Shown in pieces: positions 11,809 to 64,000 of a DNA stretch of 64,000 nucleotides. The notes under the pieces are model-generated. The model was not told where the DNA came from. It saw only the letters and a program-made list of their open reading frames with translations, and searched no databases. Origin of the DNA: Lachnospiraceae bacterium. Lineage in GTDB: Bacteria; Bacillota; Clostridia; Lachnospirales; Lachnospiraceae. How positions within the stretch are numbered: the stretch's first letter is position 1; each line of letters starts with the position of its first letter. The stretch spans positions 5,095 to 69,094 of the forward strand of contig JAFXGR010000047.1 of assembly GCA_017520155.1 (NCBI GenBank). Reading direction: 5' to 3'. The position numbers were made by a program, and so were the translations under genes.

Positions 11809-12691
11809 AGTTAATGGGGGCTTGGGAAATCAGCTTCAGCAATATGCACTATACGATAAAATGAAAGCTATGGGAAAAGAAGTGAAACTGGATCTTACTT
11901 GGTTTGAAAAAGACATGGAAAAAGCTTCACGCAGAATCTTGGAATTAAACTATTTTTCTGATATAACCTATGAGGTGGCGACACAAAAGGAAATAAAAGA
12001 AGTTTTGGGGAATAGAAATATTTTTATAAAATGTCTAGAAAAGCTACATTTGAAGGAATGTCCCCTTTATATAGAACATCAAATGTATGATCCGGGAATC
12101 TTCGAATTGAAAAATAAGATTCTTGAAGGATATTGGGCTTGTGAAAGTTATTATGCAGATAGAATATGGGATTTATGTAAACAATTAGAGTTTCCCTCGA
12201 ATATATCTGATGAAAATAAGAGGATGAAGGAAAAAATACAAAAATATAATGCTGTGAGTATTCATGTTAGGAGAGGTGATTATCTTACAGAAGAAAATCA
12301 AAGAATGTTTGGAGGAATTTGTACTAAACAGTATTATGAGGAGGCAATAAAATTGATAAAAGAAAAAATAGAACGCCCCCATTTTTTTATTTTTTCGGAT
12401 GATTCTGCTTATGTAAAAGAGCATTATTCAAATGAAGATTTTACCGTGGTGGATATTAACCATGGTATTAATAGTTTTTGGGATATGTATCTTATGAGTC
12501 AATGTAAACACAATATTTGTGCTAATAGTACTTTTAGCTTCTGGGGGGCAAGATTAAATAGAAATATGAATAAAGTAATGATTCGACCATTAAAGCAGAA
12601 GAATTGTGATTGGTATAATCCGGATGAGATGAAACAATTATGGCAGGGCTGGAGCCTGGTTGATGAAGAGGGGAATAGGATTGCAGAATGA
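11795..12691 (+). CDS. GT11 alpha-1,2-fucosyltransferase-like glycosyltransferase
   Basis: MIIIKVNGGLGNQLQQYALY, SIHVRRGDY, ANSTFSFWGA. The start at 11795 gives a canonical GT11 N-terminus. Confidence 0.85.
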   Translation: MIIIKVNGGLGNQLQQYALYDKMKAMGKEVKLDLTWFEKDMEKASRRILELNYFSDITYEVATQKEIKEVLGNRNIFIKCLEKLHLKECPLYIEHQMYDPGIFELKNKILEGYWACESYYADRIWDLCKQLEFPSNISDENKRMKEKIQKYNAVSIHVRRGDYLTEENQRMFGGICTKQYYEEAIKLIKEKIERPHFFIFSDDSAYVKEHYSNEDFTVVDINHGINSFWDMYLMSQCKHNICANSTFSFWGARLNRNMNKVMIRPLKQKNCDWYNPDEMKQLWQGWSLVDEEGNRIAE

Positions 12692-14163
12692 AAAGAATTA
12701 CAAAAAAGGGGATATGGATTGTTTTATTATTATTTTTTATCACCAGTCTTATTCCTATTTTGGGATTAAGTTTTTATAATTTTCCATGTGCAGATGATTT
12801 TTCTGCCAGTGATGATGTGCGACTTGCATGGATAAATAGTGGAAGTATAATTGCTTTATTCAAAGCAGCATGGGATAATGTGGTATTCAATTATAAAGAA
12901 TGGTCCGGGGTATATATGTCGGTTTTTTGGACATCTCTGCAGCCTGCAATATTTGGAGAAAAGTATTATTTTATCAGCAACTGGTTTACACTAGGACTTT
13001 TGGTATTCTCTGTTATGTATTTTTGTCATGTTATTTCACAAAAATATATAACAGGAAAAAAATATGATTTTAGAATAGTTGCAGTTCTATATTTGTTTGT
13101 TATCATTCAATGTATGCCGGATGGTAATGAAGGTATATTTTGGCATGCAGGTGCAGCTAACTATACATGGGCATTTTGTTTTCTAATGATACTCATAGGG
13201 ATAATTTTATCTGTTAAGAAAGAGAAAAGTAAGGCATGGAAGTATTCAAAAATAGTTATTTCTTTTATTCTTTCAATCTTTGTGGGTGGAGGAAATTATT
13301 TAACTGCCTTACAGGGAGTATTATGGATGACCTTTCTTTTAGTAATACTTTTGTTGCTAGATAAAGAAAAGAAAGAGTGGAGAGAAAAAATAACAAATAT
13401 ATATTACATCCTTATGCCTTTACTTGTTATGAGTTTATCCTTTCTGATTAGTGTACTTGCTCCCGGAAATAGTGATAGGATGCTGGAGGCAACAGGGATG
13501 AATCCTGTTAAAGCAATCCTTTTATCATGCTATTACTGGCCTGAACTTGTGATAAAAGAGTGGATTAGTTGGCCGGTAATATTAATTATATTGTTGGCAA
13601 TTCCATTTTTATACGATATTGCAAAAGAGGTTGATTATGATTTTAAATATCCGGGATTTATCATTTTAATAAGTTTAGGGTTTGCCACGGCTTGTTTAAC
13701 TCCTAACCTATATGCACAAAGCGATGTGGGAGGAGGAAGGACATGGAACATTTGTTTTCTTGTCTTGCTTTTTTGGGTTTTCTGTGACCTATTCTATATT
13801 ATGGGATGGTTTAGTACAGTATTCCAAAAGAAAGAGGAAAAGGTCATATGGAAGAAATATATACTGTATTTGATGATAATAGGGATAGGTTTTGGAGTGC
13901 TATGTACCAGAATTGATAAAGAAACATTTATGGCAACAGAAGCATGGGATGAGATTTCTTCCGGAAGAGCAGAATTTTACCGATATGAATGGGAAGAAAG
14001 AATAAAACTATATTATGATGACTCCATTGAAAATGTAGTCGTAAAACGCTTTACAGCACCGCCGCAATTACTTCTTTTTGAAGATAATGTTCCACATCCC
14101 GGAGAATGGATTAATTTAGTAGTGGCTAAGTATTATGAAAAGGAAACGGTACAGAGTGAATAG
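12688..14163 (+). CDS. Polytopic membrane protein, GT-C-like (paralog family A, member 1)
   Basis: More than 10 hydrophobic helices. Acidic first-loop motif YNFPCADDF, later LAPGNSDR. Paralogous to the proteins at 14171 and 55225. Confidence 0.5.
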   Translation: MKRITKKGIWIVLLLFFITSLIPILGLSFYNFPCADDFSASDDVRLAWINSGSIIALFKAAWDNVVFNYKEWSGVYMSVFWTSLQPAIFGEKYYFISNWFTLGLLVFSVMYFCHVISQKYITGKKYDFRIVAVLYLFVIIQCMPDGNEGIFWHAGAANYTWAFCFLMILIGIILSVKKEKSKAWKYSKIVISFILSIFVGGGNYLTALQGVLWMTFLLVILLLLDKEKKEWREKITNIYYILMPLLVMSLSFLISVLAPGNSDRMLEATGMNPVKAILLSCYYWPELVIKEWISWPVILIILLAIPFLYDIAKEVDYDFKYPGFIILISLGFATACLTPNLYAQSDVGGGRTWNICFLVLLFWVFCDLFYIMGWFSTVFQKKEEKVIWKKYILYLMIIGIGFGVLCTRIDKETFMATEAWDEISSGRAEFYRYEWEERIKLYYDDSIENVVVKRFTAPPQLLLFEDNVPHPGEWINLVVAKYYEKETVQSE

Positions 14164-14170
14164 AGAAAAA

Positions 14171-15703
14171 ATGAGAATAAGAGAATATAATAGGTATGAG
14201 CTTATCTTAACGGTCGGAGCAATTTTAGCAGTTATATTATTTATTGGCAGTCTAATACCGTTAATACATGTAGGAGTCTATAATTATGCAACCGGAGATG
14301 ATTATTGGTATGGAGTAAATACTTACAGAGGGTTTATTGAAAATGGTTTGATGGGAGCATTAAAAGGATCCTTAACCACTGTAAGAGAATTCTATTATAG
14401 TTGGCAAGGAACTTGGTTCACTATTTTTTTGTTTACCCTGTCTCCAAATCATTTTTGGGAAAATGGATATGTATTAACAGTTTTTCTTTCGTTGGGATTG
14501 CTAATAAGTAGTGTATCCCTCCTTTCTCATTATTATTTAAGAGAAAAGCTGTTATTTCGAAAATCTGTAATTATCATTATAGATTGTTTGGTATTAAACC
14601 TAATGATTCAATATATCCCCAGAACTACATCGGGAATTTACTGGTTTAATGGTATTATGCATTACTCGGTTCCCTTTTTTTTGGCCACTTTAGCAGTAAT
14701 TTATTCTCATAAATATATTGAAGAAAAAGGCAGAAAAAACTACAGTGTTCTTTTTTTGTGTTTTCTCTTTTTGGGAGGGGGAAGTTATCTGGCACCTTTA
14801 GCAGCCACATTAGTTGTGTGTATGCTATTATTAAATGCTGTCAGGATTGAGAAAATAAGCTTAAAAAATAGAGTATTTAAAATAAGATACAATTCTAAGA
14901 ATTTATGGATATTATTAGCTATTGTAGCTGAAGTGATTGGTTTGATCATTAGTTTTTTAGCACCGGGAAACAATGTAAGAGGTGGGGAAGAGTTTGGAGC
15001 AGATTTAAAGTGGGCAATACAGTGTATATTTTATGCAATAGACCGAGGAATATATTTGGGGGAAGATTATTTCAAAAATAATATGGTTACAACTATAAGC
15101 TTTGTTTTAATTGCAGTGCTTATCTGGAATGAACTATGGGAGAAAAAGGAAAAGAAGTTAAGTTTTCGTTATCCTCTTCTTTTTGTAGTATTTATGAATG
15201 GAGTATATTGGGCTATTTATACTCCGGAAATCTATTCAAGATCTGCTGTATCGGGCGGTGTACCAAATACATATTTTCACGTTTTTTTACTGGTAACAAT
15301 AGCTAATATTATTTATGTTCATGGATGGATTCAAAATATTCTCATCAGTGGTAAATTACAAGAAAGAATTAAGAATATCAAGGGGAAAAAACTGAAATAT
15401 ATTTTATTAACAGTGATATGTTTACTGTGGATTGGAGTTGTCATAAAATCTGATTTAATCACAACTTATGACTATTGCAGGGAATATATCCGTAGTGGAA
15501 AGATGGAAAGATATTTCGAGGTAAGAAAGGAACAACATAGAATTCTTTCTACCAGTGAGGAAGATCATGTGATTATACCGGAAATGGAAGGAACATATCC
15601 TTTGACCAATATGTGCCTCACAGAAAATGTAAATGCAGAAAGAAACGTTGACAGAGCGAAGTATTATAATAAAAAAAGTGTCGGAATTATAATGGTGGAA
15701 TAA
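14171..15703 (+). CDS. Polytopic membrane protein, GT-C-like (paralog family A, member 2)
   Basis: YNYATGDDYWYG after TM1, LAPGNNVRGGEEF mid-protein, C-terminal IIPEMEG...AKYYNKKSV. The alternative start is 14135. Confidence 0.5.
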   Translation: MRIREYNRYELILTVGAILAVILFIGSLIPLIHVGVYNYATGDDYWYGVNTYRGFIENGLMGALKGSLTTVREFYYSWQGTWFTIFLFTLSPNHFWENGYVLTVFLSLGLLISSVSLLSHYYLREKLLFRKSVIIIIDCLVLNLMIQYIPRTTSGIYWFNGIMHYSVPFFLATLAVIYSHKYIEEKGRKNYSVLFLCFLFLGGGSYLAPLAATLVVCMLLLNAVRIEKISLKNRVFKIRYNSKNLWILLAIVAEVIGLIISFLAPGNNVRGGEEFGADLKWAIQCIFYAIDRGIYLGEDYFKNNMVTTISFVLIAVLIWNELWEKKEKKLSFRYPLLFVVFMNGVYWAIYTPEIYSRSAVSGGVPNTYFHVFLLVTIANIIYVHGWIQNILISGKLQERIKNIKGKKLKYILLTVICLLWIGVVIKSDLITTYDYCREYIRSGKMERYFEVRKEQHRILSTSEEDHVIIPEMEGTYPLTNMCLTENVNAERNVDRAKYYNKKSVGIIMVE

Positions 15704-15706: not shown

Positions 15707-17233
15707 GTGGGAAGAATACAGTATGTTGCAAAAAATATATTATTTGGTTATATAGGAAATATTAGTTCTACCATTCTTGGTTTCATTTTAAGAATTGTTT
15801 TTATTCGAAGACTAGATGCTACACTTTTGGGTGTAAATGGCTTATACTCCGGAATTTTAACGATGCTTTCTTTGGCTGAATTGGGAATAGGTACAGCACT
15901 TAATTACAGCCTTTATGCACCTGTGGCAAAGAAGGATAAAGAAAAAATTAAATCCTACATGGTATATTACAAAAAGGCTTATAGACTGATTGCCATGATT
16001 ATTATGATTTTAGGAATCAGCCTCACTCCTTTTTTGAAGTATTTTATTAAAAACCCGGGGAATTATGGAGAAAAAGAATTAATAATTTACTATTTCATTT
16101 TTTTGTTTAATACAGTAAGCACTTATTTTGTATCTTATAAATATAGCATTGTTAATGCAGAACAAAAAAACTATATTCAAACCAACATTCTAACGATTAC
16201 AAAGCTGTTTACGACCATCCTTCAGATTATAATTTTATTACTAACTTCAAACTTCCTGTTTTATTTATTAGCATCAGCATTTGTGGAGTTAGTACAGAAA
16301 TTATATGTAAATGCTTTTTTTAATAAAAAATATCCGTACCTGAAAGATAAGCAAGTAAGAGAGTTGGAAAAAGAAGAACGTAAAGATATTATAGAAAAAA
16401 CAAAGGCTTTAGTATTTCATAAAATTGGAGATGTAATGCGGCTTCAAACAGATAGTATTATTATATCATCGTTCATCCAGGTTTCACTGGTAGGAATTAT
16501 TGACAACTATCTTATGGTAATAAATTCTATTTCAGCATTTTCGAATATTGTATTTAATTCTGTAATATCCAGTTTTGGTAATTTGATTGTAACAGAAAAT
16601 GAAGAAAAACAGTATGAAGTTTTTAAAGTATATCGTTTTGTAGCAAATTGGTTTTATGGGTTTTCAACCCTAGGATTTTGGTTTTTATTATCTCCGTTAA
16701 TTATTTTATGTTATGGAAAAGAATGGATTTTATCAGCCGGAGTTGTAAATTTGATTCTAATTGATTATTATTTCAAGGGAGAAAGAATTGTATTGTCTAA
16801 TTTTAAGACAGCAGCCGGAGTTTTTGAGCAAGATAAATACCTTACTCTAATTCAGGGAATTGTAAATTTAGTTATCTCTATTTGGTTGGTTAACGAAATA
16901 GGGGTGGCGGGGGTGTATATAGGTACTATAGTATCAGGATGGATTGCCAATATAACCAAGCCTATTATTATTTATAAGACCTGCTTTCATGTAGAAGTGT
17001 CGGAATACTTTGTCAAGGGAATGAAACAAGTATTTACAATAGGTCTTATCTCTTTATGTTGTTGGTGGTTTTCTAAATATATCCTACAGGAAATTACTAT
17101 CATAACTTTTGTAACTATGGGAGTTTTTATCGCAGTTATATTCCATATAATATTCTTAGTACTCTATTGGAAAACAAAAGAAATGGCATATATACGAAAT
17201 ATTGTTAAAGAAAAGATTAAGATAAAACCATAA
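15707..17233 (+). CDS. wzx: Wzx-type oligosaccharide flippase (MOP superfamily polysaccharide biosynthesis protein)
   Basis: 508 aa with about 14 TM helices. N-terminal RRLDATLLGVNGLYSGILTMLSLAELGIGTALNYSLY is typical of Wzx. GTG start. Confidence 0.75.
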   Translation: MGRIQYVAKNILFGYIGNISSTILGFILRIVFIRRLDATLLGVNGLYSGILTMLSLAELGIGTALNYSLYAPVAKKDKEKIKSYMVYYKKAYRLIAMIIMILGISLTPFLKYFIKNPGNYGEKELIIYYFIFLFNTVSTYFVSYKYSIVNAEQKNYIQTNILTITKLFTTILQIIILLLTSNFLFYLLASAFVELVQKLYVNAFFNKKYPYLKDKQVRELEKEERKDIIEKTKALVFHKIGDVMRLQTDSIIISSFIQVSLVGIIDNYLMVINSISAFSNIVFNSVISSFGNLIVTENEEKQYEVFKVYRFVANWFYGFSTLGFWFLLSPLIILCYGKEWILSAGVVNLILIDYYFKGERIVLSNFKTAAGVFEQDKYLTLIQGIVNLVISIWLVNEIGVAGVYIGTIVSGWIANITKPIIIYKTCFHVEVSEYFVKGMKQVFTIGLISLCCWWFSKYILQEITIITFVTMGVFIAVIFHIIFLVLYWKTKEMAYIRNIVKEKIKIKP

Positions 17234-17388: not shown

Positions 17389-18084
17389 ATGAATAAGGTA
17401 TTATTAGTAATTCCGGCATATAATGAGGCTGAGAACATAGAACGTGTTGTAGATGAGATTATAAATAATTATCCCAAATATGATTATGTAGTTGTAAATG
17501 ATGGTTCCAGAGATGATACAAGAAAAATCTGTAGAAGAAGAGGTTATAATCTGTTAGATTTACCAATTAATGTTGGTTTGGCAGGTGCAATACAAAGTGG
17601 AATGAAATATGCCAATTATTATGGGTATGATTATGTTGTACAGATTGATGGAGATGGTCAGCATAATCCTCAATATATTAAAGATATGTTGGAGAAGATG
17701 GAAAGTAGCCGGTGTGATATTGTTATAGGTTCACGTTTTAAAACCGAAAGAAAACCGGTTACCGCTCGAATGATAGGAAGCCAGTTAATAACCTATGCCA
17801 TATATATTACAACTAGAGGAACATACATAGGAGATGTTACTTCAGGAATGCGATTATTTAACAAGTCCATGATTAAGCGTTTTGGTTATCAGATGAATTA
17901 TGGACCGGAACCGGATACTCTGGCTTATTTGATTAACTGTGGAATTAAGATTGAAGAAGTACAAGTTGAAATGTCAGAAAGAATTGCAGGAGAGAGCTAT
18001 TTAAATGTGGCAAACTCTTTTACATATATGGTGCAAATGTTATTTGCTATCTTGATTTTTCAATGGTTTAGAGTGAGGAAATAA
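17389..18084 (+). CDS. GT2, polyprenol-phosphate glycosyltransferase type (DPM1/ArnC/GtrB-like catalytic domain)
   Basis: LLVIPAYNEAENIERVVDEI, VVVNDGSRDDT, QIDGDGQHNP. Confidence 0.8.
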   Translation: MNKVLLVIPAYNEAENIERVVDEIINNYPKYDYVVVNDGSRDDTRKICRRRGYNLLDLPINVGLAGAIQSGMKYANYYGYDYVVQIDGDGQHNPQYIKDMLEKMESSRCDIVIGSRFKTERKPVTARMIGSQLITYAIYITTRGTYIGDVTSGMRLFNKSMIKRFGYQMNYGPEPDTLAYLINCGIKIEEVQVEMSERIAGESYLNVANSFTYMVQMLFAILIFQWFRVRK

Positions 18085-18085: not shown

Positions 18086-18451
18086 ATGTCGATTACATTA
18101 AGAATAGTACTGCTTTTTGCTGGAATTATCACAGCAATATGGATTTTAAGAAAGATATACAAATGTAAAGTGAAATTAGGAGATGCAATTTACTGGATAT
18201 GCATGGCAATTTTATTAGTTGTTTTTGGGATTATACCTGAAAGTGCGTATTTTTTTACAAAAATGCTTGGAATTCAGGCACCGGTTAATTTTATTTTCTT
18301 GTTTATGTTGGCAGTTGTAATAGAAAAACTATTTACATTATCAATTAAGGTATCTCAATTGGAGGATAAGATAACGGTTTTATCTGCAGAAGTAGCGCTC
18401 AGAAGCAACAATAGTGAAAAGCAAATCACAGAATTAAAAGAAAAGAGATAG
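18086..18451 (+). CDS. Small 4-TM membrane protein, DUF2304-like
   Basis: 121 aa, hydrophobic with a coiled C-tail. It starts 2 nt after the GT2 stop. The GT2 plus DUF2304 pairing is a conserved arrangement as far as I recall. Confidence 0.5.
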   Translation: MSITLRIVLLFAGIITAIWILRKIYKCKVKLGDAIYWICMAILLVVFGIIPESAYFFTKMLGIQAPVNFIFLFMLAVVIEKLFTLSIKVSQLEDKITVLSAEVALRSNNSEKQITELKEKR

Positions 18452-26393: not shown

Positions 26394-27587
26394 TTGCATA
26401 TCGTATATGTTACCCCAGAGTTTGAAACTGAAAAAAAAGGTGGAGGACTGGCTAGTTATATTGCAAATATTAGCAGAGTTCTTGTGCAAAATGGTCACAA
26501 GGTTACAATAGTAGTATCTTCTGAAAAGAATAATGATAGTATTATTTGGGATAAAGGAATTGTTGTTGAAAGAGTAGTTAATCAAGGGATAAAGTTGCCG
26601 GTTCCTTTTTATAAAATTTATAAAAGCTGGAATTTACATAGAAGAGTTTGTAAAGTAGTGAGAGAGAATAAGGCTGATCTCATTCAATATGCCAGCTATG
26701 ATTCTGTTGGATTTTTTAAAGTAAAAAAAGTACCTTCCGTAGTCAGAATTTCTTCTGATTGTGTTATGTGGCGTGAGCTGAAATTTTATGATACTAAAAA
26801 GGAAGATTTAAATAAATTATGTTTGACTGATAAGATAGAGTATCTCTCCATTAGAAACAGTGAATATATCTTTGGACCAAGTAAGGCTATTGGTGAGCTA
26901 ATAGAAAAAAGAGTGGGTAAAAGAGTTACCGTGATTGAGTCGCCTTTTTTTATTAAGAAGATAGATTATAATTATGAGATTTATGATAAACTTTTACAGG
27001 GGAAAAAATATTACCTCTCTCATTCTTCTATGTCCTGTTTAAAAGGAACACATATAATTGCTGAAGCAATTCAGGAAGTATGCAAAGAAGACAAAAGTGC
27101 ATATTTTGTCTTCGCAGGAAGTGACCATGGCATTTTTTATAAAAATGGAAAGGTAGTTTCAGTAAAAGACTATATTCTTGAAAAAGCGGGAGCATTTGCT
27201 GATAAAGTTATATTTTTGGGTACATTATCAAGAGAAGAACTTTATCCTGTTATTGAAAGAGCATATGCCTGCTTAATGCCTTCAAGAGCTGATAATATGC
27301 CTAATACATGTATTGAAGCTATGGCACTTGGTGAAATTGTTATTGGTACAAATGGAGCCAGCTATGAGCAGTTAATTGAAGACAAGAAAAGTGGCCTTTT
27401 AATTGATATTGATGATGTAAAAGGAATGGTTGAAAGGATACAAATGGTAAATCGGATGAATGATAGACAAAGATTAGAGTTAAGTAATAATGCAAAAGAG
27501 GTTACGAAACGATTTGCTCCGGAAAAAGTTTATCAAAGCTTAATAAACTATTACGATAGTGTAGTAAAGGAATGGAACGGTAAGTGA
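26394..27587 (+). CDS. GT4 glycosyltransferase
   Basis: HIVYVTPEFETEKKGGGLASY, ADNMPNTCIEAMALGEIVIGTNGASYEQLIEDKKSGLL. TTG start 6 nt after AGGAGG. Confidence 0.85.
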   Translation: MHIVYVTPEFETEKKGGGLASYIANISRVLVQNGHKVTIVVSSEKNNDSIIWDKGIVVERVVNQGIKLPVPFYKIYKSWNLHRRVCKVVRENKADLIQYASYDSVGFFKVKKVPSVVRISSDCVMWRELKFYDTKKEDLNKLCLTDKIEYLSIRNSEYIFGPSKAIGELIEKRVGKRVTVIESPFFIKKIDYNYEIYDKLLQGKKYYLSHSSMSCLKGTHIIAEAIQEVCKEDKSAYFVFAGSDHGIFYKNGKVVSVKDYILEKAGAFADKVIFLGTLSREELYPVIERAYACLMPSRADNMPNTCIEAMALGEIVIGTNGASYEQLIEDKKSGLLIDIDDVKGMVERIQMVNRMNDRQRLELSNNAKEVTKRFAPEKVYQSLINYYDSVVKEWNGK

Positions 27588-51880: not shown

Positions 51881-51884
51881 CAAG

Positions 51885-55178: not shown

Positions 55179-55224
55179 ATTATAGTGAATTATGAAAGAG
55201 TAAAGTTTTAAGATGGGAGAAGAA

Positions 55225-56787
55225 ATGAAACAAAAGATGGAAGGAAAAGAAAGGAATAGTGAGATTTATATTGGTGCTGTATTAATTGCAGTTTTCATGT
55301 TGTCTCTTGTTCCCATTATTTGGTGCTCATTTTTTAATTATGCCACCGGGGATGATCTCTGGGAAGGAGCAGTGGCCTATCAGGCAATGAAAAGTGGGAA
55401 AAGCTTTCCCGAATTAATGAAGGAAGTTTTTGCATGGATGAAGGTGGATTATTTGGGATGGCAAGGAAACTGGTCCTCTACCTTCCTTTGGTGCTTTAGT
55501 CCAAATGTATTCGGAGAAAAAGCATACATCGTTACGGTATGGATCGGACTTCTTTCCCTTTGTTTGGGAAATGGATATTTTCTTTATCATTTTAATAAAA
55601 AATATTTCCATTTCACAAAAAGTACTATCGTGATATTCTGGACCATTTTTACCTTTCTATCTATCCAGTACATGCCTTATATCAGAGGGGGATTATTTTG
55701 GTATTCTGCTATGATCAATTATACCTTTCCTTATGGTCTGACATTGGCAGCCCTTGTATGGATTGACCGATTTATGGTAGAAAAAAAAGGAAAATACCTG
55801 GTGTGGCTATCTTTGTTTTATGCGTTCCTGGGGGGATCCGGCTATTTATGCATAGTGTTGAATTTCGAAATTCTTTGTTTATACTTTCTTTTTTTGCTGT
55901 GGAAAAAAGATTGGAGACAGTTAAAGCAGGCAGTAAAATTGCTGCTACCCCTGGTATTGTTACTGATTGGCTTTGTCATTAGTATTCTTTCGCCGGGAAA
56001 TGCAGTGAGAGGCGGAGAGGCTTATGAACTGGGAGGAAGTAGAATACTTACCACGTTGCTACAGTGTTTTAAAGAAGGAGCCTTAGCAATCCCGAAGAAT
56101 TTGTGGGAAATAAAACTTCTGGTAGTTCTCCTTCCCTTTTTGCTGCTCCTTTTCTGGAAAAATCTGGACATGGAAAAATGTAGGATTAGATTTTTATATC
56201 CTGTGGAGATTACAGTATTGATCTATTCACTAACCTGCTCTGTTTATGCTCCAGGTATTTATTCTCAATCTGAACTTTCAGGTGGAGTATACGATACTAT
56301 ATTTTGGGTATTTCTTTTGGGATTTTATCTGATTCTGATTTACTGGACGGGTTATTTTAAGATGAAATATCAGCAGAAGAAGGAGCAAGAACTTTCTACA
56401 GGAATAGTGAGAAAAGAAATCAGCCATAAAAAAAAGGGAAAGAACAGTAAAGAGCTTCTTGTTTTTACGGCAACAGTTTTACTTTGCATTGTTGGGAACA
56501 GATTCCTTTTTTATAATACAGCTTTTTACATAAGCTATGACTATATTGCTACGGGACAGATCGTTGATTTTGAAATACAAATGAGAGAGCGTTTGGCGAT
56601 TTTAAATAATCCTATGATAGAGGATGCGATAGTTCCGGAAATGAATGATTGGCAGGGACCTATTATGCATATGCCGTTAACTGATGATCCTACTGCATAT
56701 ATTAATCATGCTACTGCAAGATTTTATGGCAAAAAATCTGTTGTAGCAATTCCAAGAGACGAGTATTATAGATTGTATATAGAATAG
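55225..56787 (+). CDS. Polytopic membrane protein, GT-C-like (paralog family A, member 3)
   Basis: FNYATGDDLWEG, LSPGNAVRGGEAY, C-terminal IVPEMND...ARFYGKKSV. Closest by eye to the protein at 14171. Confidence 0.5.
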   Translation: MKQKMEGKERNSEIYIGAVLIAVFMLSLVPIIWCSFFNYATGDDLWEGAVAYQAMKSGKSFPELMKEVFAWMKVDYLGWQGNWSSTFLWCFSPNVFGEKAYIVTVWIGLLSLCLGNGYFLYHFNKKYFHFTKSTIVIFWTIFTFLSIQYMPYIRGGLFWYSAMINYTFPYGLTLAALVWIDRFMVEKKGKYLVWLSLFYAFLGGSGYLCIVLNFEILCLYFLFLLWKKDWRQLKQAVKLLLPLVLLLIGFVISILSPGNAVRGGEAYELGGSRILTTLLQCFKEGALAIPKNLWEIKLLVVLLPFLLLLFWKNLDMEKCRIRFLYPVEITVLIYSLTCSVYAPGIYSQSELSGGVYDTIFWVFLLGFYLILIYWTGYFKMKYQQKKEQELSTGIVRKEISHKKKGKNSKELLVFTATVLLCIVGNRFLFYNTAFYISYDYIATGQIVDFEIQMRERLAILNNPMIEDAIVPEMNDWQGPIMHMPLTDDPTAYINHATARFYGKKSVVAIPRDEYYRLYIE

Positions 56788-56812: not shown

Positions 56813-57937
56813 ATGGAAAAACGATATGATAAGATTATCATCGGTGCAGGACTATATGGCTTGTATGCAGCTAAGTTTTCTTCAGACAAAGATGAAAATA
56901 TCCTAGTTTTGGAATATGATAAAGAGCCATTTTCACGAGCTACCTACATTAATCAGGCCAGGGTACATATGGGCTATCATTATCCCAGAAGTCTGACAAC
57001 TGCTGAAAAATCAGCTGGTTATTTTAAACGCTTTGTAGAGGATTTTAGCTTTTGTATTCATAGCCGGTTCGAGCAGATTTATGCTACCTCAGCTCAGTTT
57101 TCTTGGACTAATGCAGAGCAGTTTATGGAGTTTTGCAAGGCAGCCGAAATTCGTTGTGAACAGGTGGCTCCTGAGAGATACTTTAAAAAGGGAATGTGTG
57201 ACGGGGCCTTTCTGACAGAAGAATATACTTATGATGCTTCCATCTTAAAAGAATACTTTATGGAAGAATTGGAGAAAAGAAGAAATGTTAGTTTTTTGTT
57301 TGAGGCAAGAATTAAAGAAATTCGAAGAGTGGGTAAGACTTATGTAATTACCTTAGAGAATGGTATGGAAGTGACTTCTGCTTTTGTACTAAATGCTACC
57401 TATGCATCGGTGAATCAGATATTAGAGAAGCTGGAAGGAGTAGAGAAAGAGAAATTTCCTATAAAATATGAGCTTTGTGAAATTATTCTTTGCAAGCCTT
57501 CCCAAGCTATTGAGGGAATCGGATTTACGGTTATGGATGGTCCTTTTTTTTCCATTATGCCCTTTGGAAAAACAGGATATCATTCCCTGACTTCGGTTAC
57601 CTTTACTCCTCATATTACTTCTTATGAAAACCTTCCCCGGTTTAACTGTCAGGAAAATAAGAACTGTAGTATAAAAAATCTGGCCAACTGTAATCTGTGT
57701 GAAAAGAAACCAAAAACTGCATGGAGTTATATGTCCTATCTGGCAGACAAATATTTAAAAGAAGAATACGGGTACGAATATCAGGAGTCCCTTTTTTCTA
57801 TGAAACCGATTTTAAAATCTTCTGAAATTGATGATTCCAGACCAACTGCCATTAAAGTATTTAGTACCAATCCTACTTTTGTCAGTGTACTGTCCGGAAA
57901 GATTAATACAGTATATGATCTGGATGAATATCTATGA
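56813..57937 (+). CDS. FAD-dependent oxidoreductase (Rossmann GxGxxG, DAO-like)
   Basis: YDKIIIGAGLYGLYAAKF at the N-terminus, followed by VLEYD. It has no UGM-type HIGGN motif. Confidence 0.6.
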   Translation: MEKRYDKIIIGAGLYGLYAAKFSSDKDENILVLEYDKEPFSRATYINQARVHMGYHYPRSLTTAEKSAGYFKRFVEDFSFCIHSRFEQIYATSAQFSWTNAEQFMEFCKAAEIRCEQVAPERYFKKGMCDGAFLTEEYTYDASILKEYFMEELEKRRNVSFLFEARIKEIRRVGKTYVITLENGMEVTSAFVLNATYASVNQILEKLEGVEKEKFPIKYELCEIILCKPSQAIEGIGFTVMDGPFFSIMPFGKTGYHSLTSVTFTPHITSYENLPRFNCQENKNCSIKNLANCNLCEKKPKTAWSYMSYLADKYLKEEYGYEYQESLFSMKPILKSSEIDDSRPTAIKVFSTNPTFVSVLSGKINTVYDLDEYL

Positions 57938-57957: not shown

Positions 57958-58896
57958 ATGCAGAATAAGAAAGAAAAGAAATTTATATCCATTGTTTTAT
58001 ATCTTCATAATGTAAGAGATGAAGTTCTTACCTTTTTTCAGGAGATATTGCCTTATTTTGAAGAGAGATTTGAGCAATTTGAAATTATTGGTGTCAATGA
58101 TGACTGTACCGATGGAACCGTAGAAGTTTTAAAAGAATACTTGGAAAACCGAAAGATTTCTTCTATGGTAAATCTTGTCCATATGAGTTTTTTTCATGGA
58201 ATGGAAGGATCCATGAATGCAGGAAGAGATCTTGCTATTGGCGACTTTGTTTATGAATTTGATACCATTGCCATGGATTACTCTAAGGAAATGATTGAAA
58301 AAGCTTTTGAAAAGGTGATGGATGGATACGATATCGTAGGAGTACGGCCACAAAACAATGGTAGTTTATCTTCTAGAACCTTCTATTTTCTTTATAATAA
58401 AACCAGTAGAGGTAAAGGAAAGATTGGAACAGAAAGCTTTCGTATTTTATCTAGAAGAGCCATTAATCGAGTAAAATCCATGGGGCAGTATATTCCGTAC
58501 AGAAAGGCAGTGTATGCCAACTGTGGACTGAAAACGGATTTTATTTCCTATATACCTATAAAAAAGGTGAAGAAGAATGGAAATAGAAGTGAAAGAACCT
58601 CTCTTGCCTTGGATTCCTTTATTTATTTTACTGATGTCTTAGAACGCTTTTCCATGCTGCTTTGTGTTCTGTTTCTATGTCTTAGCATTGGAATGGGAAT
58701 CTATATTATAAAGGATTATTTCAGTGGTACTTCTATCGTGGAGGGATGGCTATCTACCATGGGATTTTTATCTTTGGGCTTTTTTGGAGTATTTGCCCTT
58801 TTAACGATTATGTTAAAATATTTATCTGTGATGCTGAATCTCATTTTCCGTCATCAGAGATATTTTATTATGGAAATTGAAAAGGTGGTAAAATAA
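57958..58896 (+). CDS. GT2 with two C-terminal TM helices (GtrB/CsbB-type polyprenol-phosphate glycosyltransferase)
   Basis: FISIVLYLHNVRDEV...FEIIGVNDDCTDGT. C-terminal helices LLCVLFLCLSIGMGIYII and GFLSLGFFGVFALLTIML. Confidence 0.7.
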   Translation: MQNKKEKKFISIVLYLHNVRDEVLTFFQEILPYFEERFEQFEIIGVNDDCTDGTVEVLKEYLENRKISSMVNLVHMSFFHGMEGSMNAGRDLAIGDFVYEFDTIAMDYSKEMIEKAFEKVMDGYDIVGVRPQNNGSLSSRTFYFLYNKTSRGKGKIGTESFRILSRRAINRVKSMGQYIPYRKAVYANCGLKTDFISYIPIKKVKKNGNRSERTSLALDSFIYFTDVLERFSMLLCVLFLCLSIGMGIYIIKDYFSGTSIVEGWLSTMGFLSLGFFGVFALLTIMLKYLSVMLNLIFRHQRYFIMEIEKVVK

Positions 58897-59648
58897 TGGG
58901 GCAGTTAAGTATTAATCTTTTATATCCGGTATTAAATGAACGTCTTCGTTTGGAAAAGGGAATTGAAACATCTATTCAGTATTTAAGAGAAAATATTACA
59001 AATCCCTACCGACTTACCATATTGGATAATGGCTCTGATGACGAAACTCCTGAAATTGCAAGAAGCTTGGAGAAGAAATACGAGGAAGTAGCTTACGTAC
59101 GGATGGAAGAACGGGGTGTGGGAGTTGCTTTTCGAAGAGGAATTTCAGAAAATACCAGTGATATTGTAGGATACATGGATATTGATTTATCCACTGATTT
59201 AAAATATCTGAAAAAGACCATAGAAATGTTTGAGGAAGATGAAAGTCTGGAATATGTAAATGGTAGCAGATTTAGTAAGGAATCTGATACCAGAGGAAGA
59301 AAGTGGTATCGCAAGATTACTTCCATGGGACTTTTAATTTTATTAAAGAGTATATTTCATATGAAAGCTACCGATGCTGTCTGTGGTTTTACTTGGGTTA
59401 GAAGAGAAACGGCCGAAATTCTTACTTTAGAATGCAGTAAGGAAAAAGGATGGTTTTATACTATAGAGTTTCTTCTTCGGGCAGAACGAAGAGGAGTGAA
59501 GATTTATGATATGCCGGTAGAGTGGCAGGAAGATTACAATACTACAGTAAAGCTATGGAAGACCATTAAAAATTATCTGGTGCAGATTATACGACTGAAA
59601 AAAGCTTTTTTAGAGGAAGACAAGGGGTTAGATAAACGGACAATCTGA
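58896..59648 (+). CDS. GT2, DPM1-like polyprenol-phosphate glycosyltransferase
   Basis: LTILDNGSDDETPEIA, GYMDIDLSTDL. One-nt TAATG overlap with the upstream GT2. Confidence 0.75.
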   Translation: MGQLSINLLYPVLNERLRLEKGIETSIQYLRENITNPYRLTILDNGSDDETPEIARSLEKKYEEVAYVRMEERGVGVAFRRGISENTSDIVGYMDIDLSTDLKYLKKTIEMFEEDESLEYVNGSRFSKESDTRGRKWYRKITSMGLLILLKSIFHMKATDAVCGFTWVRRETAEILTLECSKEKGWFYTIEFLLRAERRGVKIYDMPVEWQEDYNTTVKLWKTIKNYLVQIIRLKKAFLEEDKGLDKRTI

Positions 59649-59717: not shown

Positions 59718-60818
59718 ATGATTAAAAGAATTGACCTTACAAGAGATTATAAAGCACATAAAGAAGAGTATTTAAAAGCCATAGAAGCAGTTTGTGAGGA
59801 AACGGCCTTTTCCGGTGGAAAATATGCGGATGCCTTTGATAAAGAATTTGCTGCCTACTGTCAGGTGCCTTATGCCACCGGTGTCAACAATGGAACTTCT
59901 GCCCTTCACTGTGCCATGGTAGCTTTGGGAATCGGTCCGGGGGATGAAGTAATTGTACCGGCAAATACTTATATAGCAACTGCCTGGGGGGTAACCTACA
60001 GTGGAGCAACTCCCGTATTTGTGGATTGTACTTCGGATACTTGGCAGCTGGATCCGGATAAGATTGAAGAAAAGATCACAGAAAAAACAAAGGCTATTTT
60101 GGGAGTGCATCTGTATGGACAGCCCTTTGAGTACAATAAGATCAATACCATTGCACAAAAATATAATCTGTATTTGGTAGAAGACTGTGCCCAGGCCCAC
60201 GGAGCAATGTATGAAGAAAAGATGGTAGGAGGATTAGGGGATTTAGGATGCTTTAGCTTTTATCCGGGCAAAAATCTTTATGCTTTTGGAGAAGGAGGGA
60301 GTGTCACTTGTCGTAAAAAAGAGCATTACGATACTATTAATGTCATGAAAAATCAGGGATGTGCGATTCGCTATTATCATGATATGATTGGCTATAATTA
60401 CCGTCTGGAAGGACTCCAGGGAGCGGTACTAAGTGTTAGCCTAAAGTATCTTCCACAATGGACTAAACGAAGACAAGAGTTAGGGGAGAGATATTTGAAA
60501 GAAATCACAAACCCTCTTTTTACTCTACAGACACATCCGGGGAATACCACACCGGTATACCATCTCTTTGTGGTGACAGTGGAAAATCCGGAACATTTTC
60601 TGAAATATATGGAAACACAGGGAATCGAATGTAACAGACATTACCCGGTGCCCTGTCATTTGCAAAAGGCTTATCACCATCTGGGATATCAGGTGGGAGA
60701 CTGCCCCAATGCAGAATACCTGGCATCTCATTGTGCCACCCTGCCTTTGTTTCCGGAGATGACGAAAAAAGAGCAGGATGCAGTGATTAAAGCCTGTAAT
60801 GAATATAGAGGGATGTAA
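59718..60818 (+). CDS. DegT/DnrJ/EryC1/StrS-family PLP-dependent sugar aminotransferase
   Basis: GVNNGTSALHCAMVALGIGPGDEVIVPANTYIAT, EDCAQAHGA, FSFYPGKNL (catalytic Lys), GYNYRL. Confidence 0.9.
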   Translation: MIKRIDLTRDYKAHKEEYLKAIEAVCEETAFSGGKYADAFDKEFAAYCQVPYATGVNNGTSALHCAMVALGIGPGDEVIVPANTYIATAWGVTYSGATPVFVDCTSDTWQLDPDKIEEKITEKTKAILGVHLYGQPFEYNKINTIAQKYNLYLVEDCAQAHGAMYEEKMVGGLGDLGCFSFYPGKNLYAFGEGGSVTCRKKEHYDTINVMKNQGCAIRYYHDMIGYNYRLEGLQGAVLSVSLKYLPQWTKRRQELGERYLKEITNPLFTLQTHPGNTTPVYHLFVVTVENPEHFLKYMETQGIECNRHYPVPCHLQKAYHHLGYQVGDCPNAEYLASHCATLPLFPEMTKKEQDAVIKACNEYRGM

Positions 60819-60885: not shown

Positions 60886-62415
60886 ATGAAGAAAGATTTG
60901 GAAAGAAAGAAGATAAAATTAAACAAAAATAGAATTAAGAATTTGTCAGAGGAATATGAGGCAGTAATTTTTTGGGTGATTTTATCCTTCTTTATGGTTG
61001 TTTTCCTTGATAAAATGGGAACACTTTTTTCCGGATATCATCTTGTTGATGATCAGAATTACATTAACATTAATAAAGGGTTAATGGTAAATGGGCTTAA
61101 AGAACAGCTGCTTCGTTCTGTACGAGGGGATTTCCATCTGCGTTTTCGCCCTCTTTGGTCCTTTACCCGTGTTTTGGATACCTATTTTTTTATGGATAGC
61201 TATGGGATTTTATCTTTAAAAAATGTGGTAGTAATTACAACATCTTCCTCGCTGTTCTTTTATTACGCCAGAAGAAGGGGAGTTAGCAGAGCTTATGCCA
61301 GCCTTTTGGGATTTTTTACCTTTTTAGGTAATCAGGCGGCTGTTTTATGGAGACTGGGGCCCCAGGAGCCGGTAGGTTTACTTCTTTTTTCCATAGCCTT
61401 GGTAGCAACAGACCTGTTAATAAAGAAAAAAAGCTTTATTAGAAGTAGTTTTTTTGTATTAATATTAATTTTGTTGACTTTACAGAAAGAGGCTTTTTTG
61501 GCCTGTATGCCGGGATTTTATCTACTGTTATTTTCTTCCTTTCTGAAGGAAAGAAAAGAGGAAAAAGTATCCTTCTTTTCTTTATGCGGAAAATTTATTT
61601 TAAAATATAAGATAGAAATTCTTTTATGCATTGCTGTTTTGGCGGCGGAAGCTTATTTTATTACTACGAAAGTCGGGCTTAATTCCATAGAATATGCGGG
61701 TTTCAGTGTGGAGGATGGATTGTTTTACTATTTAGAAGGAATTCTAAGGATTATGCAAGGACCTTTTTTACCCTACCTTCTTTTTCTCTTTACCTTTTTC
61801 CTTTTTTTTCAACAGATATGGAAGAAGGAAGATTTTCATGTGGGAAATCTAATAGAAATATTGTTTCCTGTTTACATCATTTTGATTCAATTGGTAATTC
61901 ATGCTAAAAGTGGAATGTGGGAAAGATATTTGATTCCGGCAGTCATAGGAGTAGCTTATATTGCCATTATATTAGGGCATAAATATTTTCATAAAAATAA
62001 AAGATTGTATTTTGTCTATCTGCAGCTTCTTTTAATTTTTTTGTTAAATCGTGGTTGGAATCTGCCGGCTCAAGCGAAAGATTTTACATTGCAGGCAGAG
62101 AACTTTCAAGAGTTAGTAAGTGATGTTTTAACGAATATAAGTACAGATGACAATATTCTGCTGTGTTCAGACCCTGAAAATCAGGAGATTGACTATTCTT
62201 TTTCTTTGTACCTAGATTATTATCATGGATATGGAAATTTTTCTTATTTGAGTGAATATGAAAATGAAATAGAAGCAATAAAAGAGGCTGATTTGCTATT
62301 TGGTTTACCGGGAACAGTACAGACAAAGATAGCATTAGAAGGGGTTAATAAAGAAGATTATAGAGTACACCAAACTACACATTATGAGATTGCTGTAAAG
62401 GAAGGAACGAACTAA
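60886..62415 (+). CDS. Polytopic membrane protein, GT-C-like (paralog family B, direct copy)
   Basis: FLDKMGTLFSGYHLVDDQNY, RFRPLWSF, WRLGPQEPVG, C-terminal DYRVHQTTHYEIAVK. Confidence 0.55.
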   Translation: MKKDLERKKIKLNKNRIKNLSEEYEAVIFWVILSFFMVVFLDKMGTLFSGYHLVDDQNYININKGLMVNGLKEQLLRSVRGDFHLRFRPLWSFTRVLDTYFFMDSYGILSLKNVVVITTSSSLFFYYARRRGVSRAYASLLGFFTFLGNQAAVLWRLGPQEPVGLLLFSIALVATDLLIKKKSFIRSSFFVLILILLTLQKEAFLACMPGFYLLLFSSFLKERKEEKVSFFSLCGKFILKYKIEILLCIAVLAAEAYFITTKVGLNSIEYAGFSVEDGLFYYLEGILRIMQGPFLPYLLFLFTFFLFFQQIWKKEDFHVGNLIEILFPVYIILIQLVIHAKSGMWERYLIPAVIGVAYIAIILGHKYFHKNKRLYFVYLQLLLIFLLNRGWNLPAQAKDFTLQAENFQELVSDVLTNISTDDNILLCSDPENQEIDYSFSLYLDYYHGYGNFSYLSEYENEIEAIKEADLLFGLPGTVQTKIALEGVNKEDYRVHQTTHYEIAVKEGTN

Positions 62416-62416
62416 C

Positions 62417-62839
62417 GTGAATAAGATCAAAAAAATCTTTCAAATGGAACAGGCCCGGTTCATTATTGTTGGTGTATTGAATACCATCATCGGAACAGCA
62501 GCCATGTTCATTGCTTATAACATCTTTCATATGGGATACTGGATGTCAAGTGCCATGGACTATATTATCGGAAGTATATTCAGCTATTTTGCAAACAAGT
62601 ACTTTACCTTTCAGTCCCATAAAAAATCAGGAAAAGAAGTGATCCGCTTTGTGATCAACATTTTGATATGCTACGTCATTGCCTACTCCGTAGCCAAGCC
62701 GGTAATCTTTACCCTGATGAAAGGAATCTCTTTCTCCGTGTCCCTGATGGAACAGATTAGTATGGTTTTGGGAATGTGCATTTTTATTGTACTGAATTAT
62801 TTTGGACAAAAGTTTTTTGTATTTCGAGATTCCAAATAA
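62417..62839 (+). CDS. gtrA: GtrA-family small membrane protein (polyprenol-phosphate-sugar translocation)
   Basis: 140 aa with 4 TM helices. RFIIVGVLNTIIGTAAMFIAYN and NKYFTFQS match the GtrA-like pattern. GTG start 2 nt after the upstream stop. Confidence 0.8.
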   Translation: MNKIKKIFQMEQARFIIVGVLNTIIGTAAMFIAYNIFHMGYWMSSAMDYIIGSIFSYFANKYFTFQSHKKSGKEVIRFVINILICYVIAYSVAKPVIFTLMKGISFSVSLMEQISMVLGMCIFIVLNYFGQKFFVFRDSK

Positions 62840-62967: not shown

Positions 62968-62995
62968 GGGGTAATATTCGTAAGAATGTTACCCC
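62968..62995. terminator. Strong hairpin at a convergent gene junction (possible terminator, no clear U-tract)
   Basis: GGGGTAATATTC (62968-62979), GTAA loop, GAATGTTACCCC (62984-62995). The stem is 12 bp with one mismatch. Confidence 0.35.
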
Positions 62996-63148
62996 ATTAC
63001 TGTAATCAGGAATATTTTCCTTATAGTAGAACAGTTCCCGCTGGTTCTGTAAATTTAATCTGATAAAATCCGTTTCAATAACGGAATGGGTTTTAGGTTC
63101 AAGCATATACAGTTGCTGTTCATAGACCTTGTAGTAGGATATGGATTC

Positions 63149-64000
63149 TTAACTTACTTTGCTTAAGTAGACTCCCAATAAAAGTGGGAGAGTATATATG
63201 ATTGGAAAGGCATATCTTGGCTGCAGATAAATCTGTGGTCCGATTAAAAGAAAGAGAAAGGTGAAAAGCAGAGGTAACAGCGCAAGATATAGACTTCGTT
63301 TTTTATCCTTAAAAATAAAGCAGGATATTATAAAGAAGGTAATAACATAAGAGGAAGCATTGCTAAGAAGACCTATTACAGGAAGCTTACTTAAAAGAGA
63401 ATAATAACTTACCATTACAGTGGTAATACCTTCCATAAATTTGGGAATTTTAAATTGGAGTAAGGCAGGAAGCCCATATTCAATCGTAATTTCATGACCG
63501 ACATAACAGTCTTTGTTATAAACGATATTATCTGTTTTAGGATAAAATATATAATAGTTCTGATTCCAGGTAGCTTCCAGATAACAAAGAGGATCTTGAA
63601 GGAACTGGGAAAACCATATTTTGAAATAAGAGGTCATATCTTCCATAGATGCTGCATGGTAAGTTGTTTTTACCGGATCAGAGGTCATTTCATTGTAGAG
63701 ATAAGGAAGATTATTATAATCCAGTACCTTTCTAAGAACTTCAGCTTCGGCTACCGAAATTTTCTCTTTATGTTCTTTTACAAAACGTGCAGTTTGCTGA
63801 AAGGGCAGAGAAAACATTTCCTTTGGAGAATCCTGTACTACCTCATATTGTTTGGTAATTACAAAACGGATGCTGCTGTTAAGTAATATAGGAAGAAGTA
63901 AAATAGCAAAAAGGAGAATAATCTGCTTATGTCTCAGCACTTTTCTTTTTTTGAAAAAAAAGATGGAAAGAAGCAGGGCAATCGGCAGATAAATGTAAAT
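63149..64000 (-). CDS. Polytopic membrane protein, C-terminal part (5' end outside the window)
   Basis: The listed ORF starts at a GTG (63940), but the minus-strand frame stays open to nt 64000 (IYIYLPIALLLSIFFFKKRK upstream). It has TM helices flanking a ~190-aa loop domain. Likely another extracytoplasmic glycan-modifying membrane protein. Confidence 0.5.
   Translation of the reverse strand: MYIYLPIALLLSIFFFKKRKVLRHKQIILLFAILLLPILLNSSIRFVITKQYEVVQDSPKEMFSLPFQQTARFVKEHKEKISVAEAEVLRKVLDYNNLPYLYNEMTSDPVKTTYHAASMEDMTSYFKIWFSQFLQDPLCYLEATWNQNYYIFYPKTDNIVYNKDCYVGHEITIEYGLPALLQFKIPKFMEGITTVMVSYYSLLSKLPVIGLLSNASSYVITFFIISCFIFKDKKRSLYLALLPLLFTFLFLLIGPQIYLQPRYAFPIIYTLPLLLGVYLSKVS

Follow-up and report, generated by a model that had tools for sequence, protein, structure and literature searches.

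The best-described counterparts of the locus analyzed here are systems of multi-component transmembrane glycosylation. In Salmonella Typhimurium, the gtr cluster STM0557-0559, of which STM0557 is gtrC, adds glucose alpha-1,4 to O-antigen galactose (PMC3688519, PMC2909390), and in Streptococcus pyogenes, GacI/GacJ/GacK/GacL provide the N-acetylglucosamine (GlcNAc) side chain of the group A carbohydrate (PMC8035078). The characterized Firmicutes tabulated in PMC8035078 carry one to three such systems per species, scattered in the genome. Here, we describe a 64,000-nucleotide stretch of contig JAFXGR010000047.1 (hereafter, the window), which belongs to a super-locus of >70 kb for cell-surface glycans in an uncultured gut Lachnospiraceae bacterium and encodes nine large polytopic membrane proteins with conserved acidic motifs. 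With a probability of roughly 0.7, we read this locus as Gtr/Gac-type multi-component transmembrane glycosylation in which glycosyltransferases of the GT-C fold are the transferases of sugars carried on undecaprenyl phosphate (Und-P), plus a route through undecaprenyl-diphosphate (Und-PP)-linked glycans for the protein at 37760 and probably for that at 35831. With six families and nine to ten GT-Cs in ~72 kb, the density is unusual; the mechanism is a familiar one.

All nine polytopic open reading frames (ORFs) listed by the initial annotation of the window were recovered at, or no more than 36 nt from, the positions it gave. Three of its starts (14171, 35849 and 55225) fall on Met codons inside slightly longer ORFs, which can begin at 14135, 35831 and 55213. 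Eight of the nine ORFs are complete and encode 491-676 amino acids (aa); the last runs off the window end, with 282 codons visible of a protein that has 630 aa in the metagenome scaffold ERZ28654013 scaffold_190. All-against-all BLASTP sorted the proteins into six sequence families, in agreement with the two groups proposed earlier (features are named by their first coordinate and lie on the + strand unless marked -). Specifically, family A consists of 12688..14163 (491 aa), 14135..15703 (522 aa) and 55213..56787 (524 aa), at 26-29% identity (E 1e-32 to 1e-53), and family B of 34219..35742 on the - strand (~491-507 aa) and 60886..62415 (509 aa), at 44% identity (E 4e-136). The remaining four are singletons, namely, 53434..55122 (562 aa), 35831..37759 (642 aa), 37760..39790 (676 aa) and, on the - strand, 63149..64000.

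Partner genes and the closest described systems

The Salmonella and Shigella GtrA/GtrB/GtrC systems (e.g., STM0559-STM0557) find a likeness toward the end of the window, where a GtrB-type family 2 glycosyltransferase (GT2; 57958..58896), a GtrA-family small flippase (62417..62839; PF04138, E 2.2e-22) and the family B protein 60886, which has a GT-C fold, lie within 5 kb. The match of this GT2 to GtrB (PDB 5ekp) is full-length and takes in the C-terminal transmembrane (TM) hairpin (E 5.8e-16); it also matches ArnC and the NCBIfam model PgfS (E 1e-20). These genes belong to a six-gene module (56813-62839) that further encodes a flavin adenine dinucleotide (FAD)-dependent oxidoreductase (56813..57937; Pfam DAO), a second GT2 that has no TM segment and weakly resembles dolichyl-phosphate (Dol-P)-hexose transferases (58896..59648; Pfam GT2, E 9e-20) and a PseC/LegC/ArnB-type sugar aminotransferase (59718..60818; NCBIfam PseC, E 9.6e-74, and ArnB, E 5.9e-58). 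The module may make and transfer an Und-P-linked amino sugar. Likeness to GtrABC extends to family A, which falls in a Pfam family named for the GtrC protein STM0557. Three aspects deviate from it. First, in this Gram-positive host, a wall glycopolymer is the likely acceptor. Second, nine to ten transferases of six families accompany four synthases, in place of one-to-one operons. Third, the GT-C next to GtrA is of family B, for which no Pfam model matches.

A second block, nearer the start of the window, resembles the Gac system. It brings together the two tandem family A proteins 12688 and 14135, a Wzx-like polytopic protein that is a candidate flippase (15707..17233), a soluble-type GT2 of the PpgS/AglJ/GacI-like polyprenyl-phosphate sugar synthases (17389..18084; Pfam GT2, E 2.8e-30) and, directly after it, a small DUF2304 membrane protein in a GacJ-type role (18086..18451; PF10066, E 7.5e-23). 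GacJ itself is, we presume, a DUF2304 protein. A synthase variant made of a glycosyltransferase plus a distinct membrane protein has been described for GacI/GacJ (PMC8035078). The best NCBIfam match of 17389 is PpgS, a polyprenyl-phospho-N-acetylgalactosamine synthase (E 3.6e-31), followed by the archaeal AglJ and by Dol-P-hexose transferases. The block differs from Gac in that its GT-Cs are DUF6056 proteins, while GacL is a PMT_2 protein, in having two tandem GT-Cs instead of one, and in the weakness of its Wzx assignment (NCBIfam WZX_like, E 5e-10, sub-threshold).

Past the window end (locus L018, positions 12264-21530), the region continues with the full-length DUF6020 gene, a 329-aa PgfS/ArnC-like GT2 (NCBIfam PgfS, E 6.5e-72), a YdjC deacetylase, a PMT_2 protein and two MBOATs. 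The DUF6020 gene is divergent from the GT2+YdjC pair, which recalls NaxD/ArnD-type deacetylation of a lipid-linked sugar. The PMT_2 protein (L018 16239-17921) scores above its Pfam cut-off and is a tenth GT-C candidate. Over ~72 kb, the region as a whole thus has ten candidate GT-Cs alongside four donor synthases. The three GT2s listed at first as the only donor synthases (17389, 57958 and 58896) are indeed of the polyprenyl-phosphate-sugar synthase type, and their count holds inside the window; a fourth lies just beyond it.

Other described systems share parts of this organization. CsbB/GtcA/YfhO, GtlA/GtlB and lactococcal CsdAB/CD/EF with CflA follow the same three-step logic, have GT-Cs with little mutual sequence similarity, and show that several GT-Cs can draw on a single flippase and a single donor, as documented for GttA and CflA (PMC8035078, Table 1). 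Unlike the nine to ten GT-Cs in ~72 kb here, these are among the one to three scattered systems per species, and the window has no YfhO-family member, although one is present in a related locus (L026). The lipid A amino-sugar systems ArnC/ArnT, NaxD/FlmF2/FlmK and LgmABC resemble the aminotransferase, GT2, flippase and GT-C of 59718-62839 and the GT2, YdjC deacetylase and PMT_2 GT-C just past the window. The target in a Firmicute cannot be lipid A, however; an FAD oxidoreductase replaces ArnA-type chemistry, and 35831 matches the ArnT model only at E 3.6e-4 (19.3 bits versus a cut-off of 567). Mycobacterial Emb/Aft proteins offer a precedent for many GT-C paralogs using one lipid-linked donor on one complex wall glycan, and the structural matches include AftA, AftB, EmbC and AftD. 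In contrast, the proteins here are much smaller, without large C-terminal carbohydrate-binding modules, and the locus has no decaprenyl-phosphoribose pathway genes. A pentofuranose three-component system (PMC11127046) was likewise set aside, as the window contains neither a polyprenyl phosphoribose synthase nor a MATE flippase.

In the mechanism we propose, the GT2s (17389 with its DUF2304 partner, 57958, 58896 and the one past the window) would load sugars onto Und-P at the cytoplasmic face, the sugar of the 56813-62839 module probably being an amino sugar by virtue of the oxidoreductase and the aminotransferase. The lipid-linked sugar would then be flipped by GtrA (62417) or the Wzx-like 15707, and each GT-C would move it, in an inverting reaction, onto a defined site of a wall glycopolymer or a surface protein; the invariant Asp/Glu that closely follows the entry TM helix would be the putative catalytic or metal-binding residue. 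The six proteins of families A, B and 53434 would carry out this transferase step, with several paralogs per donor that may differ in acceptor or linkage. For these three families, we infer donor, acceptor and chemistry from the fold, motifs and partner genes. The excess of GT-Cs over synthases could be accommodated because donors may be shared among paralogs, because a fourth synthase lies past the window, and because the flippases (three PglK-like and one Wzx-like) can supply Und-PP-oligosaccharides to some of the GT-Cs.

Fold, motifs and topology of the nine polytopic proteins

Of the nine proteins, the case for a GT-C assignment is strongest for the six in families A, B and 53434, moderate for 35831 and the DUF2142 protein 37760, and weak for the DUF6020 protein 63149. 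For family A, the evidence comes from Pfam. Both 12688 (51.8 bits) and 14135 (44.7 bits) exceed the 27-bit cut-off of PF19528, and 55213 matches 14135 at E 1e-52 (blastp). Formerly DUF6056, PF19528 has been renamed GT_STM0557_N in a newer Pfam release, after the Salmonella GtrC; hence, family A belongs to a family with a characterized GtrC. Pfam also placed 37760 in DUF2142 (PF09913, 133.8 bits versus a cut-off of 30.1, with residues 229-635 spanning the whole model) and 63149 in DUF6020 (PF19484, cut-off 28.3 bits; 99.4 bits for the fragment in the window and 155.2 bits for the full protein in L018). Thus, the view that none of these proteins could be assigned to a characterized enzyme was too strong, given that DUF6056 includes STM0557 and that DUF2142 has been reported in lactococcal WpsI (PMC12599335).

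Pfam gave no match for families B, 53434 and 35831. For 35831, this includes PMT_2, which matches only 3 of 51 family B relatives. The three families differ in size. With 56 clusters among 5.8 billion proteins, family B is rare; the 53434 family is of modest size (98 clusters) and the 35831 family is very large (4653 representative clusters), yet no Pfam model matches it. In some family B relatives (P0035, P0050; L020 11911-12867), a GDSL/SGNH hydrolase domain is fused to the protein (820-839 aa) or lies next to it, which suggests coupled glycosylation and O-acyl handling.

Structures were predicted with AlphaFold2 for 60886 (family B) and 53434, as representatives of two families with no Pfam match and no other lead. 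Both models are of high confidence, with a predicted local distance difference test (pLDDT) of 91.7 and a predicted template-modeling (pTM) score of 0.90 for 60886, and 93.1 and 0.92 for 53434. Each shows TM1, then a loop with the acidic pair and two short helices, ~10-12 further membrane helices (~11-13 in total) and a C-terminal alpha/beta domain. Foldseek searches of the PDB returned GT-C structures in all of the top 30 matches for family B (the C-mannosyltransferase DPY19 at 6.6e-6, STT3, PglB, AftA, ALG9, AftB and PMT) and in all of the top 14 for 53434, with ArnT (5f15) among them. Across both models, the GT-C structures matched were DPY19, STT3A/B, PglB, AftA, AftB, ALG9, ArnT, PMT and EmbC, at probability 1.00 and template-modeling scores of ~0.4-0.5, whereas transporters and G-protein-coupled receptors (GPCRs) appeared at probabilities of 0.04-0.3, which is noise (~0.1 for transporters with 53434).

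Profile-profile comparison (hhalign) links most of the remaining families to these two. Family B and the 35831 family align at 95.5% probability (E 1.3e-8, 211 columns), 53434 and family A at 88% over 312 columns with their acidic motifs in register, 53434 and 35831 at 83%, DUF2142 and 35831 at 77% over 319 columns, and family A and DUF2142 at 72%. As a negative control, the unrelated polytopic family of 51846 and 6261 reached no more than 10% against every GT-C family. The link between families B and A is weak, at 1% with a 3-sequence family A profile and 22-75% with a 24-sequence profile, and a phmmer search with the family A proteins found no cross-matches among the collected family B and 53434 homologs.

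The acidic motifs reported earlier (ADDF, GDDY, GDDL, QDDQ, VDDQ, SDES, WDS and YDEPRH) were all present in the sequences. In family A, they read CADDF at residue 34 of 12688, TGDDY in 14135 and TGDDL in 55213; in family B, LQDDQ in 34219 and LVDDQ in 60886; and in the singletons, WSDES in 53434, NWDSM in 35831 and VYDEPRH in 37760. In alignments of 24-51 homologs at 20-50% identity (five sequences for DUF6020), every motif shows conservation of at least 90% or full invariance, which, judged from these alignments, is far above chance. Specifically, the DD pair of family A (D55 and D56 in 14135) is invariant in 24 sequences. Conserved residues are H52, D55 and D56 in family B (51 sequences), D33 and E34 within WSDESFY in 53434 (at least 90% of 44 sequences), an invariant D123 within NWDSxxYH in 35831 (43 sequences), D243 and H247 in DUF2142, where D401, R627 and Y628 are also invariant (30 sequences), and D200 in the five DUF6020 sequences. 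Further, families B, 35831, DUF2142 and DUF6020 have an ordered set of conserved residues in common. It begins with the acidic residue following the entry helix and continues with a second acidic residue (E161, D228, D401 and D298, in the same family order), a Lys (K201, K276, K442 and K297) and an Arg-Tyr near the last helices (R347-Y348, R470 alone in 35831, R627-Y628 and R608-Y609).

A crude hydropathy scan gave 9-15 TM segments per protein, in agreement with the helices of the AlphaFold2 models of 60886 and 53434. It placed every motif 5-14 residues past a TM segment that carries many Lys and Arg residues at its other end; therefore, by the positive-inside rule, the motifs lie on the outer face, as had been proposed. 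In families A, B and 53434, the segment before the motif is TM1, preceded by a short basic N-terminus. In 35831 and 37760, the motif follows TM4 and TM3, respectively.

The diphosphate-linked route and competing readings

Three genes encode fused ATP-binding cassette (ABC) exporters whose top NCBIfam match is PglK over the full length, namely, 1699..3456 (E 3.4e-104), 27584..29362 (E 7e-97) and 47142..48896 (E 1.4e-109). Against the PDB, 47142 matches PglK (5c73) over its full length at E 4e-91 and MsbA at E 1.7e-61. Having three such paralogs suggests that Und-PP-glycans leave by three separate streams within this one locus. Compared with Campylobacter PglK/PglB, the likeness lies in these flippases and in PglB and STT3 as top structural neighbors of family B and 53434. 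The differences are the PglK scores, at 325-367 bits far under the equivalog cut-off of 1000, and the finding of neither a WWDYG-type motif nor PglB sequence similarity here.

The DUF2142 domain has been reported in WpsI, the predicted polymerase of the lactococcal polysaccharide pellicle (PSP), and DUF2142 proteins were used to infer the transferase WpsJ (PMC12599335, PMC9746298). A 37760 homolog of 44% identity adjoins a PglK-like ABC gene in L026 and lies upstream of acyltransferase and WecG-GT4 genes like those here, and a homolog of 35831 sits among cytosolic glycosyltransferases, without GtrA. Because of the PglK-like genes, the occurrence of DUF2142 in WpsI/WpsJ and these neighborhoods, 37760 is more likely a polymerase or en-bloc transferase on Und-PP-linked oligosaccharides, and we tentatively extend this role to 35831; their oligosaccharides would be flipped by the three PglK-like proteins. 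As with WpsI/WpsJ, 37760 clearly belongs to DUF2142, and its locus is dual-pathway-like: a WecG/TagA primer glycosyltransferase and a flippase are encoded nearby. Unlike them, it has a PglK-like ABC protein in place of a Wzx-type partner flippase. The functions of WpsI (PSP polymerase) and WpsJ (PSP-to-rhamnan transferase) are themselves largely predicted. A further deviation is an extra N-terminal TM helix in 37760, followed by an extracytoplasmic domain of ~155 residues (residues 34-189; 37760-38330) that precedes the Pfam-matched core.

Several points weigh against this combined reading of Und-P-sugar and Und-PP-glycan routes. The evidence for these proteins and this organism consists of sequence, predicted structure and gene context, and the division between the two routes is drawn from gene neighborhood. 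The AlphaFold2 models cover two of the six families; topology comes from a home-made hydropathy scan and the positive-inside rule, in place of a trained predictor; and the profile links, which for family A, 35831 and DUF2142 reach a moderate 72-95%, span part of each protein (85-319 columns). DUF6020 reaches at best 51%, over 76 columns against the 35831 family, with a five-sequence profile. Single-sequence and profile hidden Markov model (HMM) searches of PDB sequences returned no match for any GT-C family, including B, A, 35831 and DUF2142, because the families are too distant from solved GT-Cs for sequence methods. Among individual assignments, 55213 falls below its Pfam cut-off (21.9 bits), 58896 is weakly of the polyprenyl-phosphate type (NCBIfam Dol-P-hexose transferase, E 1.3e-8; ArnC, E 7e-6), and the Wzx-likeness of 15707 is faint, with no Pfam match even at E up to 1 and none in the PDB.

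A more far-reaching version of the combined reading, which we put forward tentatively and would sooner doubt than assert, is a hybrid assembly line. Three to four Und-PP-oligosaccharide streams, flipped by the PglK-type ABC proteins and the Wzx-like protein, would be polymerized or ligated outside the membrane by unclassified GT-C families (35831, DUF2142 and DUF6020), and six Gtr-type GT-Cs that share a small number of Und-P-(amino)sugar donors would decorate the product. CAZy and Pfam would gain a new GT-C family from each of B, 53434 and 35831, and dense loci of this kind would be general in gut Lachnospiraceae, where they could underlie strain-level diversity of surface glycans.

Alternatively, most of the nine proteins could be polymerases, ligases or oligosaccharyltransferases acting on Und-PP-oligosaccharides, like the Wzy polymerases of clan GT-C3, WpsI/WpsJ or PglB, with donors flipped by the PglK-like proteins and the Wzx-like protein. 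These four flippases allow four possible Und-PP-glycan streams, and cytosolic GT2, GT4 and GT11 genes are numerous in the window, which also encodes a WecG/TagA-GT4 primer enzyme. The assignment of DUF2142 proteins to WpsI and WpsJ, the homolog abutting a PglK-like gene, and the STT3 and PglB matches of family B and 53434 also fit this possibility. Further, GT-C3 Wzy polymerases have a long N-terminal loop with a conserved Asp, His and two Arg (PMC10920833), which the invariant sets of family B (H52, D55, R86, R88), 35831 (D123, H128, R131, R470) and DUF2142 (D243, H247, R627) resemble, by description. We nevertheless consider it somewhat unlikely for most of the nine. Families A, B and 53434 occur repeatedly beside GtrA, GT2+DUF2304 or GtrB-type GT2s in independent loci, which is the signature of Und-P-monosaccharide systems, and family A lies within the Pfam family of a GtrC glucosyltransferase.

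Glycosylation of surface proteins by some of these GT-Cs (S-layer proteins, adhesins, flagellin or pilins), in the manner of Pgf of Streptococcus mutans or PMT/PglB, would be in keeping with the PgfS matches of 57958 and of the GT2 past the window and with protein-modifying GT-Cs (DPY19, STT3 and PMT) among the structural neighbors. However, polysaccharide-assembly genes dominate the locus (the WecG/TagA primer enzyme, a pyruvyl transferase, acyltransferases and ABC flippases), and no candidate gene for a substrate protein was found within the window, so we regard this as improbable.

It is hardly credible that the nine proteins are transporters, flippases or non-catalytic scaffolds with acidic motifs irrelevant to glycosyl transfer, as the lack of Pfam assignments for B, 53434 and 35831 and a weak MerC match of 60886 (E 0.0018) might suggest, given that both folded families match GT-C structures over transporters and GPCRs, that no transporter HMM in Pfam or NCBIfam matches any of the nine, and that the motifs are invariant and located where GT-C catalytic residues sit, with none predicted on the cytoplasmic side. 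Equally remote is the idea that the density reflects a chimeric assembly or decaying duplicates: the source is a metagenome scaffold and one family 11 glycosyltransferase (GT11) gene has a premature TAG, but independent assemblies (62.9, 93.1 and 97.8 kb) contain these proteins too, gene order is retained in a related species, all nine ORFs are intact, other Lachnospiraceae loci also have several such genes, and the comparisons below indicate constraint.

Conservation, density and further gene content

A locus from a different sample and a related species (L024) has the same gene order from the ABC gene to DUF6020, at 76-94% amino-acid identity. For genes with unsaturated synonymous divergence, the ratio of nonsynonymous to synonymous substitution rates (dN/dS) between the window and this locus is 0.03-0.15, or about 0.1, with values of 0.11 for 53434, 0.095 for 55213 and 0.05 for the FAD oxidoreductase 56813. 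Given this synteny and these low ratios, the genes are therefore functional and under constraint. Partner genes also recur more widely. A 60886-type family B gene followed by GtrA is found here and in L021, L022 and L024, and small GT2s flank family B in L020-L022 and L024. In L023, a 53434 homolog directly follows a GT2+DUF2304 pair, which occurs also in L026. The tandem family A pair followed by a Wzx-like gene recurs in L002, L003 and L005.

Other fetched Lachnospiraceae loci hold 3-5 such GT-C genes per 17-21 kb; as the loci compared were selected through family members, no unbiased frequency follows from this figure. The density looks typical of the clade rather than unique to the source genome. 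The searchable literature contained almost nothing on DUF6056 or DUF6020 and nothing tying GT-C enzymes to Lachnospiraceae, which are abundant gut commensals with almost uncharacterized surface glycans that presumably serve as phage receptors and host immune ligands. What is new here is the gene density, the three GT-C families without a Pfam model (B, 53434 and 35831), which are concrete candidates for new CAZy and Pfam families, and the likely mix of Und-P-sugars and Und-PP-glycans in one locus; the known mechanism of multi-component transmembrane glycosylation is unchanged by it. The three families are also possible parts for glycoengineering, where they could add to the GT-C enzymes, PglK-type flippases and Und-P-sugar synthases already in use.

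Family A homologs (22-34% identity) were present on four short, unannotated human fecal contigs labeled "Bacteriophage sp.", the only ones in the phage collection, and a BFVD search with the family B model returned a few uncharacterized phage proteins, including one of Oenococcus phage phiS13. These matches may point to phage-borne seroconversion genes in Firmicutes. They are too little to make a case for prophage-borne seroconversion at the present locus.

The window has a G+C content of 33%, carries nearly all of its genes on the + strand, and is 99.98% identical (6 differences in ~35 kb) to the 97.8-kb scaffold_190 of ERZ28654013, a human-independent metagenome scaffold; homologs of its proteins are labeled Lachnospiraceae, Eisenbergiella or Butyrivibrio. 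Annotation of ~50 ORFs with Pfam and NCBIfam gave the picture of one very large glycan-assembly region. Its cytosolic transferases are many and include GT2, GT4, GT11, GT17-, GT32- and FUT8-like enzymes, with the WecG/TagA-GT4 fusion at 40943, and further genes encode a pyruvyl transferase, GH88, acyltransferase_3, a PseF-like cytidylyltransferase and the three fused ABC exporters. Two additional polytopic proteins, 51846..53441 and 6261-7424, are homologous to each other (hhalign 98.7%) and have no Pfam or NCBIfam match. They were considered as extra GT-Cs and rejected, forming instead the separate family that served as the hhalign control. This family is kept beside a Wzx-like gene in L002, L003 and L005, and its members may be Wzy-like polymerases.

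The GT11 fucosyltransferase-like gene at 44086-45162 is split in the window by a TAG at 44749-44751; ERZ28654013 scaffold_190 has GAG at this site and an intact 358-aa GT11-like gene. Finally, the PseF-like cytidylyltransferase (29376-30038) and a protein of 529 aa (32444-34033), which begins with an HMGL-like aldolase domain and has an unassigned C-terminal half, together hint at a cytidine monophosphate (CMP)-activated keto-acid sugar in a second module.

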